From Escherichia coli (lineage in GTDB: Bacteria; Pseudomonadota; Gammaproteobacteria; Enterobacterales; Enterobacteriaceae), in assembly GCF_001677475.2 (NCBI RefSeq), contig NZ_CP015229.1: a DNA stretch of 64,000 nt; one strand, 5' to 3'. How positions within the stretch are numbered: position 1 is the first letter of the stretch; every line of letters begins with the position of its first letter. Below, one piece after another: positions 671 to 2,128 of the stretch. The position numbers and the translations under genes are program-made. The notes under the pieces were generated by a model. That model was not told the origin of the DNA. It worked only from the letters and a program-made list of their open reading frames with translations, and made no database searches.

Positions 671-2128
671 ATGACAATTTCAAATTCGAATTTATTGAAA
701 CCGTTTATTACTGGTACTGAGTTGCCACCTTTTAAAGAGGATGTTTTTTCTAAAACAGAAGAACAATTTAAAAAAAGCCCCCATGGCAAATTACTTTTCA
801 TTTCCGGAAATGAAAACTTAGTAAACATTTCAGCGGAAAAAATCGATGAAATAAAAAATAGCAAAGATTTCTTTTCAAACATTGTAAATATAATAATTTT
901 ACTCATTAAGCATCCTGATAAAATTCTGCCCATTCTTCATGGTTGTCCTGCAGAGTCCATCGAACTCATTAAGAATGCGAAACGAACGGGGCAATGGTCA
1001 TATGAGATGACTGATAAGAACGGGCAGAATATTGAAGTGTCCTATATTTTCACTGATACCATAGATGATAAATCTGATGGAAAATTATGCTTAAAAATCT
1101 ATAACTCTTGCAACCAAAATGATTCTAGTACACATGAATATAAAATAGATCATCAACAGTTGAAAAATCACATAAGGCAACTTGAGGAGTGGGCCCTTCT
1201 TGAAAAGTTTTATGATAACAACGCTTATTATTCTAAACGTACAAAACAATTAGAGAAGAAAATTGCCGATGCGGGGTTTATAACAGGGAAGGTTAATGCC
1301 GATAACTTTAATGTAAAAGAGTTTAAAGACGATATAGCCTCGATGCTTTGTGAACAGCCCCCCATGCGTACACACCAGATTTCTTCATCCGGATACTTAT
1401 CTGCCGATAAAGTGCCCGATCTCTATAAGACAAATTTGAAAGACGCGCAGAGAGATCTGAAAACAACACCGGTTGACATCGATGGTGTTAGTCTAAAATC
1501 AAAAACTCGGGAAAAAATTGCAAAAGAAATTGCGAAAAAAACTGAGGAAGAAAATGCGGAAAAAATTGCGAAACAAAATGCGAAGACCATTGAGGAGAAG
1601 AATAGTGAAAAAAACAAGAAAGAAACAAATCCTGAGGATAATTTTGTCTTAAAATTCTCACCGGAAGAAATCAATGAGATGCTCCTGGATTACAGCGATG
1701 AAGAACAAAAAAAATTAAGACCTTTTTTCACTAGTGATCACATGTATTGTTTGTTTGATGCTTTTAGTCAGGGGTTGCATAATGTTGCTCGTAATGGCAG
1801 TCCACGGTATGCAGGTTTACTACGTCAAATAGCATCCAAGTCTGCGATATTACAAGATTTTGATCAACAATTGTTCTGGCGCACGTTTTCAGGAGGAGTC
1901 TTCCATCGACGTATCTCTGTGAACAGCGAGCCAGAAAAGACAGATGTATGGCGATTCAGTACACAATTTGATTTTCCACATATAAATGACAACGGAGAGT
2001 TGTCCAGAACGGTACTCATGTTCGAGGGGGTTGCTGAAAGCAACTTTAAAGATATCGCCAATCATTCCAGCGAATGTTTTTCTTACAGTTGTTATGCCGC
2101 TCCGCTGGATGCGAATGCTAAAAAATAG
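671..2128 (+). CDS. Orphan 485-aa protein in an AT-rich insertion; putative papain-fold (OTU-like) cysteine peptidase effector/toxin with a Lys/Glu-rich repeat linker
   Basis: Uninterrupted 1458-nt ORF in AT-rich DNA (about one third G+C by eye), GGAG at 660-663 seven nt before the ATG, stop TAG at 2126-2128. No counterpart in the K-12-type gene order that I know. Cys box DHMYC(360)LFDAFSQGLH and H437-I-N439-D. No signal peptide or transmembrane segment evident. Confidence 0.8.
   Translation: MTISNSNLLKPFITGTELPPFKEDVFSKTEEQFKKSPHGKLLFISGNENLVNISAEKIDEIKNSKDFFSNIVNIIILLIKHPDKILPILHGCPAESIELIKNAKRTGQWSYEMTDKNGQNIEVSYIFTDTIDDKSDGKLCLKIYNSCNQNDSSTHEYKIDHQQLKNHIRQLEEWALLEKFYDNNAYYSKRTKQLEKKIADAGFITGKVNADNFNVKEFKDDIASMLCEQPPMRTHQISSSGYLSADKVPDLYKTNLKDAQRDLKTTPVDIDGVSLKSKTREKIAKEIAKKTEEENAEKIAKQNAKTIEEKNSEKNKKETNPEDNFVLKFSPEEINEMLLDYSDEEQKKLRPFFTSDHMYCLFDAFSQGLHNVARNGSPRYAGLLRQIASKSAILQDFDQQLFWRTFSGGVFHRRISVNSEPEKTDVWRFSTQFDFPHINDNGELSRTVLMFEGVAESNFKDIANHSSECFSYSCYAAPLDANAKK

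Follow-up and report, generated by a model that had tools for sequence, protein, structure and literature searches.

The DNA considered here is a 64,000-nucleotide (nt) stretch of an Escherichia coli genome (contig NZ_CP015229.1), referred to below as the window. It opens with the 3' end of malZ (to position 485), followed by an AT-rich orphan open reading frame (ORF) of 485 amino acids (aa) on the plus strand (671-2128), acpH on the minus strand (2149-2787), queA, tgt, yajC, secD and secF. In O157:H7 Sakai the orthologue of this ORF is ECs_0454, and the ORF bears the annotation 'hypothetical protein' everywhere. Its N-terminal region (aa 1-275, plus strand 671-1495), which is free of insertions and deletions (indels) in every homologue, and its C-terminal region (aa 321-485, plus strand 1631-2125) are separated by a Lys/Glu-rich tandem repeat, the subject of the current analysis. 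With moderate confidence, the repeat as a whole is best explained as a coding minisatellite that varies by slippage and encodes a helical spacer of near-neutral length variation.

The tract consists of ten 12-nt units, each encoding four residues, which run in frame from codon 281 of the ORF (plus strand 1511-1630, aa 281-320) and are translated as EKIA KEIA KKTE EENA EKIA KQNA KTIE EKNS EKNK KETN. It is 79% purine and 31% GC. The 11-mer GAAAAAATTGC occurs at exactly 1511 and 1559 with a spacing of 48 nt, as had been pointed out in a first-pass annotation of the window, and the peptides quoted there correspond to aa 281-296, 297-312 and 313-318 of the translated ORF. The longest exact repeat in the tract is the 12-mer GGAAAAAATTGC, found at 1510 and 1558, which opens each of two higher-order 48-nt copies (1510-1557 and 1558-1605, together plus strand 1510-1605); a degenerate partial third copy is found at 1606-1630. 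Tandem Repeats Finder reports a period of 48 with 2.2 copies (78% match, score 122) and a period of 12 with 6.1 copies and the consensus AAAAAATTGCGA, as well as periods of 24 and 36. No RNA family of Rfam has been detected within the tract.

The observed self-match of 37/48 was reached in none of 1000 codon shuffles of the whole ORF (null 26.0 +/- 1.4). With codons shuffled inside the tract only, p is <= 0.0002 for offsets of 12, 24 and 48 nt, and the repeat therefore exceeds what Lys/Glu composition would produce. When the order of the 12-nt units is shuffled, the 48-nt period goes only marginally beyond the 12-nt period (p = 0.03). The basic unit is 12 nt, or 4 aa, and 48 nt is a weaker higher-order period. 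The 48-bp unit proposed in the annotation is thus real as a higher-order period, and its exact loss has been seen in two alleles described below, but the main unit of slippage is 12 nt.

The number of units differs among strains, as the annotation had anticipated. Tract length has been measured between the anchors GVSL...[DN]NFVLKF in 119 full-length homologues, and lengths of 31, 35, 39, 43, 47, 51 and 55 aa have been identified in 5, 2, 1, 47, 7, 54 and 3 of them respectively. Every length equals 31+4n aa, corresponding to 6-12 tetrads. Among the 120 best homologues the protein length ranges from 466 to 493 aa and the aligned indels all fall within the tract. The variation is further concentrated in a sub-region (aa 282-302, plus strand 1514-1576) to which all indel columns of 121 unique homologues map, the sole exception being a tiny C-terminal gap of 2-3 residues at aa 478-481 in 1-2 of these sequences. 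The distal tetrads KTIE EKNS EKNK KETN (plus strand 1583-1630) are invariant in length and better conserved. An alignment of six alleles at the DNA level shows 12-nt indels at differing positions. Of 60 complete genomes sampled at even intervals along the match ranking, 27 have a tract 12 nt shorter than that of the window, 19 have the window length, 10 are longer by 12 nt, two are frameshifted and two belong to a divergent type.

Recurrent change is seen in alleles that differ in the tract only. Backbones with no differences outside the tract carry tracts of 47, 51 and 55 aa, an observation that argues against a single origin of each length class followed by its spread through recombination. 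On an identical backbone at least three distinct derivatives of 47 aa (P0040, P0045 and P0063) and two of 55 aa (P0104 and P0115) have been identified, and P0031 (39 aa) differs from P0004 (43 aa) by one unit. P0020 and P0028 (31 aa) differ from the type of the window and P0001 (47 aa) by an exact deletion of 16 aa, or 48 nt, between two GAAAAAATTGC repeats, and the 31-aa tract of P0035 departs from theirs by a single substitution. The exactness of this deletion shows that the 48-nt unit is a real, minor unit of recombination. Since identical backbones carry different tract lengths, units have been gained and lost repeatedly at the DNA level; the derived lengths are rare on each backbone (1-4 contigs versus hundreds). 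All the four properties by which an in-frame coding variable-number tandem repeat (VNTR) was tested, namely repetition beyond composition, an in-frame unit, variation by whole units and recurrent events, have been found.

The tract also contains runs of six or seven adenines (1512-1517, 1535-1541, 1560-1565 and 1608-1614), two of which are altered in the frameshifted loci examined (L009, L004 and L010). The A6 run at plus strand 1512-1517 is shortened to A5 in strain ECSC054, giving a -1 frameshift pseudogene, and the A7 run at plus strand 1608-1614 is lengthened to A8 in O145:H28, giving a +1 frameshift pseudogene. The latter change is common to isolates from Japan (12E115) and the USA (RM13514) and is therefore not an assembly error. 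These are two independent inactivations of the gene. The tract is comparable to phase-variable simple-sequence loci in being a slippage-prone coding repeat whose A6/A7 runs have yielded frameshift-inactivated alleles. It differs from them in that the 12-nt unit provides no ON/OFF switching and the frameshifts are fixed pseudogenes that are not evidently reversible. A phase-variable contingency locus has accordingly been considered and rejected, since the 12-nt unit always keeps the frame and tract length is uniform in O157:H7; the changes of one nucleotide in the A-runs are fixed in their lineages, O145:H28 (two unrelated isolates) and the single strain ECSC054. The tract slips repeatedly but slowly and is not a hypermutable switch.

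A divergent mosaic allele, referred to here as the SM107 type (locus L005, positions 1292-2677, strain SM107), encodes 461 aa and has been identified in 31 complete genomes including O157:H16 Santai. Its N-terminal 280 aa and its C-terminal part are conserved (about 93% and about 80% identity respectively), and the repeat with the next 25 residues or so (equivalent to 1511-1700 of the window) is replaced by a shorter non-repetitive segment, KTRRHLADIIHVKCMREKN..., which bears a faint similarity to a single EKIAEIIAKQ...EEKN copy. This similarity hints that the array may have grown from a non-repetitive helix, and the SM107-type allele could represent either the state before expansion or a recombinant.

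The structural character of the tract has been assessed by prediction. Neither Pro nor Gly is present in aa 281-320, and helix propensity reaches its maximum for the whole protein within the tract. Pairs of opposite charge at i->i+4 number 10, against 5.1 +/- 1.8 in shuffled sequences (p = 0.007), and the same shuffle test revealed no enrichment at spacings of 1, 2, 3, 5 or 7. All alleles retain the tetrad register. The full-length AlphaFold2 (AF2) model has a mean predicted local distance difference test (pLDDT) score of 38, which renders a fold search meaningless, and shows a helix at aa 277-303 with a pLDDT of 53-63 in the tract. A second AF2 run on the fragment aa 262-355, based on aligned length variants, yields a single unbroken helix (aa 275-315) with a pLDDT of about 60-74 in its first half and 54-59 in the second, followed by coil and by two short helices of the C-terminal region (aa 331-337 and 343-354, pLDDT about 93). 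The predicted template modelling score of the fragment is 0.29, as expected for an extended and unpacked element.

A simplified Waggawagga score for single alpha-helix (SAH) formation, computed with our own equal weights rather than the published matrices and normalised to EEEEKKK, has also been used as a proxy. The default cut-off of the original SAH-score is 0.25 over at least 14 residues (PMC5812594). The proxy reaches at least 0.25 only at aa 274-318 within the protein. On these predictions the tract is best read as a solvent-exposed charged helix that is borderline to the ER/K type of SAH, with a disordered polyampholyte as the main rival. Of the features of ER/K SAH domains, a predicted long helix, the lack of a hydrophobic seam and an i->i+4 enrichment are seen, the dense i,i+3/i,i+4 network of opposite charges is borderline on the proxy, and a very high charge density is missing. 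The tract thus resembles a charged helical spacer in action and is not classified as a genuine SAH. The proposal of such a spacer in the annotation is in this sense upheld at the level of prediction, and neither constancy of length nor an integral folded part of a domain, the observations that it named as contrary to its view, has been encountered.

A position of the tract as a spacer between the N- and C-terminal parts is suggested by the confinement of indels to it, by its higher column entropy (0.32 versus 0.14 bits in the flanks, or 2.4-fold), by the conservation of both flanks in the SM107-type allele and by a profile of charge and hydropathy that fits a linker. The annotation had placed the tract between two domains; the position of the spacer is retained, and the two domains are putative, the full-length model being too poor to show them. 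The product of ECs_0454 is probably laid out as an N-terminal part, a helical spacer and a C-terminal part.

The host gene lies on a low-GC insert relative to K-12 (486-2145), which comprises this single gene and measures 1.66 kb in a BLAST comparison with the K-12 stretch. The insert has a GC content of 37% versus 51% for the window, and in K-12 a gap of 4 bp separates the malZ stop codon from that of acpH. The gene is carried by 1127 of 5426 complete E. coli genomes (about 21%) and is lacking in about 79%; in the carriers it is always chromosomal and always at the malZ-acpH site. The only two 'plasmid' matches in PLSDB, NZ_CP134663.1 and NZ_CP141089.1, are 4.9-Mb records and evidently chromosomes. 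In the O55:H7 strain USDA5905 (hit H40) only the last 354 nt or so of the insert are matched, adjoining malZ, and most of the gene has apparently been deleted; the O55:H7 strain DEC5E, unlike USDA5905, has the full tract region.

Profile searches of the host protein against Pfam, NCBIfam, PADLOC, PHROGs and PDB have revealed nothing above the curated cut-offs. Sub-threshold matches to Cas7e/CT1975, paramyxovirus F0 and dynein roadblock are centred on the low-complexity tract and have been rejected as compositional noise. When 1.84 billion representatives were searched exhaustively with phmmer, only the cluster of the protein itself, fragments of it and one weak PKD-like match were returned, and no homologues have been found outside Escherichia/Shigella. 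The weak match is a 947-aa metagenomic protein (P0140) in which a thrice-repeated PKD-like unit aligns with aa 102-158 (window 974-1144; E-value 5.6e-6, about 30% identity). It could be a hint of an N-terminal beta-sandwich, and has been set aside as too weak for use and irrelevant to the tract. The protein is flagged as a horizontally acquired, Escherichia-restricted orphan, without signal peptide or cell-wall anchor and probably cytoplasmic.

The ratio of nonsynonymous to synonymous substitution rates (dN/dS), taken between alleles, ranges from 0.45 to 1.1 in the two flanking regions (window 671-1495 and 1676-2125), with values below 1 in most comparisons. These ratios far exceed those typical of E. 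coli core genes and indicate relaxed or diversifying selection. Taken together with the absence of the gene from about 79% of genomes and its inactivation in two lineages, they suggest that constraint is weak or that selection is diversifying.

These results are explained as follows. The imperfect 12-nt units, with their weaker 48-nt order, encode a tetrad of the pattern charged, charged, I/N/T, A/E. Neighbouring units mispair, through replication slippage or unequal recombination, so that whole units of 12 nt, and occasionally 24 or 48 nt, are gained or lost. The frame is kept throughout, and the outcome in E. coli is an allelic series of 6-12 tetrads. In the protein, the tract may form an exposed alpha-helix, monomeric and about 40 residues long, in which i->i+4 salt bridges between Glu and Lys provide stability and which would act as a semi-rigid spacer between aa 1-275 and aa 321-485. 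If standard helix geometry applies, the gain or loss of one unit would shift the two parts by about 0.6 nm in distance and about 40 degrees in relative rotation. Most likely the differences in length are tolerated and close to neutral rather than a regulated switch.

Several observations weigh against this interpretation. No length variant of the SM107-type allele has been found in the 31 genomes, where the alleles are at least 99% identical and near-clonal, so that this control is underpowered. The O157:H7-type alleles sampled have one uniform length, which implies a low rate of slippage. The charged fraction of aa 281-320 is 0.53 versus 1.0 for the EEEEKKK reference, and the peak of the SAH proxy, 0.28-0.33, lies in the twilight zone of a score built with equal weights and not with the published matrices. 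The distal half of the tract is rich in Asn, Thr and Ser and there the pLDDT drops to 54-59. The full-length AF2 model is unusable, and the two flanking 'domains' are therefore putative. A literature search on ECs0454, Z0502 and Z0503 returned nothing, and one on the malZ/acpH island nothing relevant.

The same properties of composition and model confidence form the case for an intrinsically disordered polyampholyte linker, a flexible segment in which a change of length would alter the tether length only. The limited charge (53%), the frequency of Asn, Thr and Ser, the pLDDT of 54-74 in the fragment and 53-63 in the full-length model, and the high sequence diversity of the tract are all compatible with it. 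A continuous helix is nevertheless predicted in both AF2 runs, the enrichment of opposite charges is specific to the i->i+4 spacing, and aa 281-320 lack Pro and Gly while the tetrad register is kept in all alleles; we consider the disordered linker a possibility of secondary rank, with roughly one chance in five. A coiled-coil segment serving oligomerisation would share the long predicted helix, and Ile or Ala do recur every four residues. A test for heptad periodicity came out negative, however: the best heptad register has only 17% hydrophobic a/d positions (33% with Ala counted), there are 4 Ile per 40 residues, and a period of 4.0 residues gives no continuous seam on an alpha-helix. Given this poor hydrophobicity, and since gains and losses of four residues break the heptad register and yet are tolerated, a coiled coil is for practical purposes ruled out.

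Other explanations concern the meaning of the length variation and the status of the gene. Diversifying selection, imposed for example by a host, phage or partner, might favour different spacer lengths and turn the tract into a tuning device. Seven length classes of which three are common, the high dN/dS of the flanks and the accessory, low-GC nature of the insert would fit such adaptation. But length is fixed in large clones such as O157:H7, the derived lengths amount to 1-4 contigs on each backbone, the gene is dispensable, as about 79% of genomes lack it and two lineages carry it in inactivated form, and the high dN/dS is equally compatible with relaxed constraint; adaptive tuning is therefore rather doubtful. 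A further reading is a natural, genetically adjustable SAH 'ruler', in which a seven-step series of 6-12 tetrads (about 3.7-7.3 nm, 40 degrees per step) carried by E. coli lineages would set the distance and orientation of two domains of a lineage-restricted orphan protein under relaxed or diversifying selection, and the settings would matter functionally, for instance towards a target of variable geometry. We regard this as a speculative and unlikely proposal. It might also be argued that the ORF does not represent a functional gene and that the repeat is a non-coding minisatellite in decaying foreign DNA, given the lack of homologues outside Escherichia/Shigella and of any family match, the dN/dS of 0.45-1.1, the two frameshifted lineages and the fact that no consensus sigma-70 promoter was found upstream of the ORF. 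Against this, an open frame of 485 codons would arise by chance in 37%-GC DNA with a probability of about 7e-17, an intact coding sequence is annotated in most of the 1127 carrier genomes, a GGAG Shine-Dalgarno sequence lies at the right distance (8-11 nt) 5' of the ATG, dN/dS is below 1 in most comparisons and indels are virtually absent outside the tract, all of which make a non-functional ORF very improbable.

The slippage-variable helical spacer that we favour can be compared with a number of known systems. SAH domains that bridge two functional domains have been described (PMC4183817, PMC5812594), and examples of the ER/K type include myosin VI/X, caldesmon, INCENP and the KER of CAF-1 (PMC4183817, PMC5812594, PMC10335832). 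The tract is similar to them in being rich in Lys and Glu and devoid of Pro and Gly, in forming one long isolated helix, as predicted, between two parts of a protein, and in its enriched i->i+4 pairs of opposite charge without a hydrophobic seam. It differs in that about 53% of its residues are charged, compared with nearly all in classical SAHs, in its borderline score, in its tetrad rather than heptad-like (E4K3) period, in the frequency of Asn and Thr and in its occurrence in a bacterial orphan. Engineered rigid helical linkers of the type A(EAAAK)nA are built from a designed pentad, and the number of units sets the length of the spacer. They share with the tract a short periodic Glu/Lys unit placed for intrahelical salt bridges and an Ala-rich filler, but the units of the tract are natural and imperfect tetrads whose number varies by natural slippage.

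In-frame coding VNTRs are also known in bacteria, as exemplified by the Ala/Lys/Glu-rich helical domain II of TolA and by the surface-protein repeats used in multiple-locus VNTR analysis for typing. As in these, the imperfect head-to-tail units of the tract have a length that is a multiple of 3 and vary in copy number as whole units, within a low-complexity linker; the very short unit (12 nt), the small range (6-12 units) and the uncharacterised host set the tract apart. Charged linkers encoded by in-frame repeats that are prone to slippage are familiar from textbooks, and the host gene is unstudied. The tract could serve as a length marker of modest value, with seven alleles in cleanly scorable 12-nt steps in about one fifth of E. 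coli including O157:H7, O55:H7 and O145:H28; it has not been found as a listed typing locus in the literature. Should the spacer turn out to be a stable SAH, the alleles found in nature would offer ready-made length variants for tests of how its length influences the function of the protein.

Two further features of the region have been noted. An antisense ORF of 83 aa (1423-1674, minus strand), rich in Phe and Ser, overlaps the tract; it mirrors the purine-rich coding strand, is almost certainly not a gene and has been dismissed. The acpH-queA intergenic region contains a 124-bp insert relative to K-12 (window 2731-2854), which we take to be an enterobacterial repetitive intergenic consensus (ERIC)/intergenic repeat unit (IRU) element from its match to the ERIC1R and ERIC2 primer sites. 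Rfam reports only V_AS5 at this position, below threshold (35 bits versus a gathering score of 96). In the loci fetched from different strains, acpH and queA lie 93, 219 or 296 nt apart, and the presence of this element is therefore variable.

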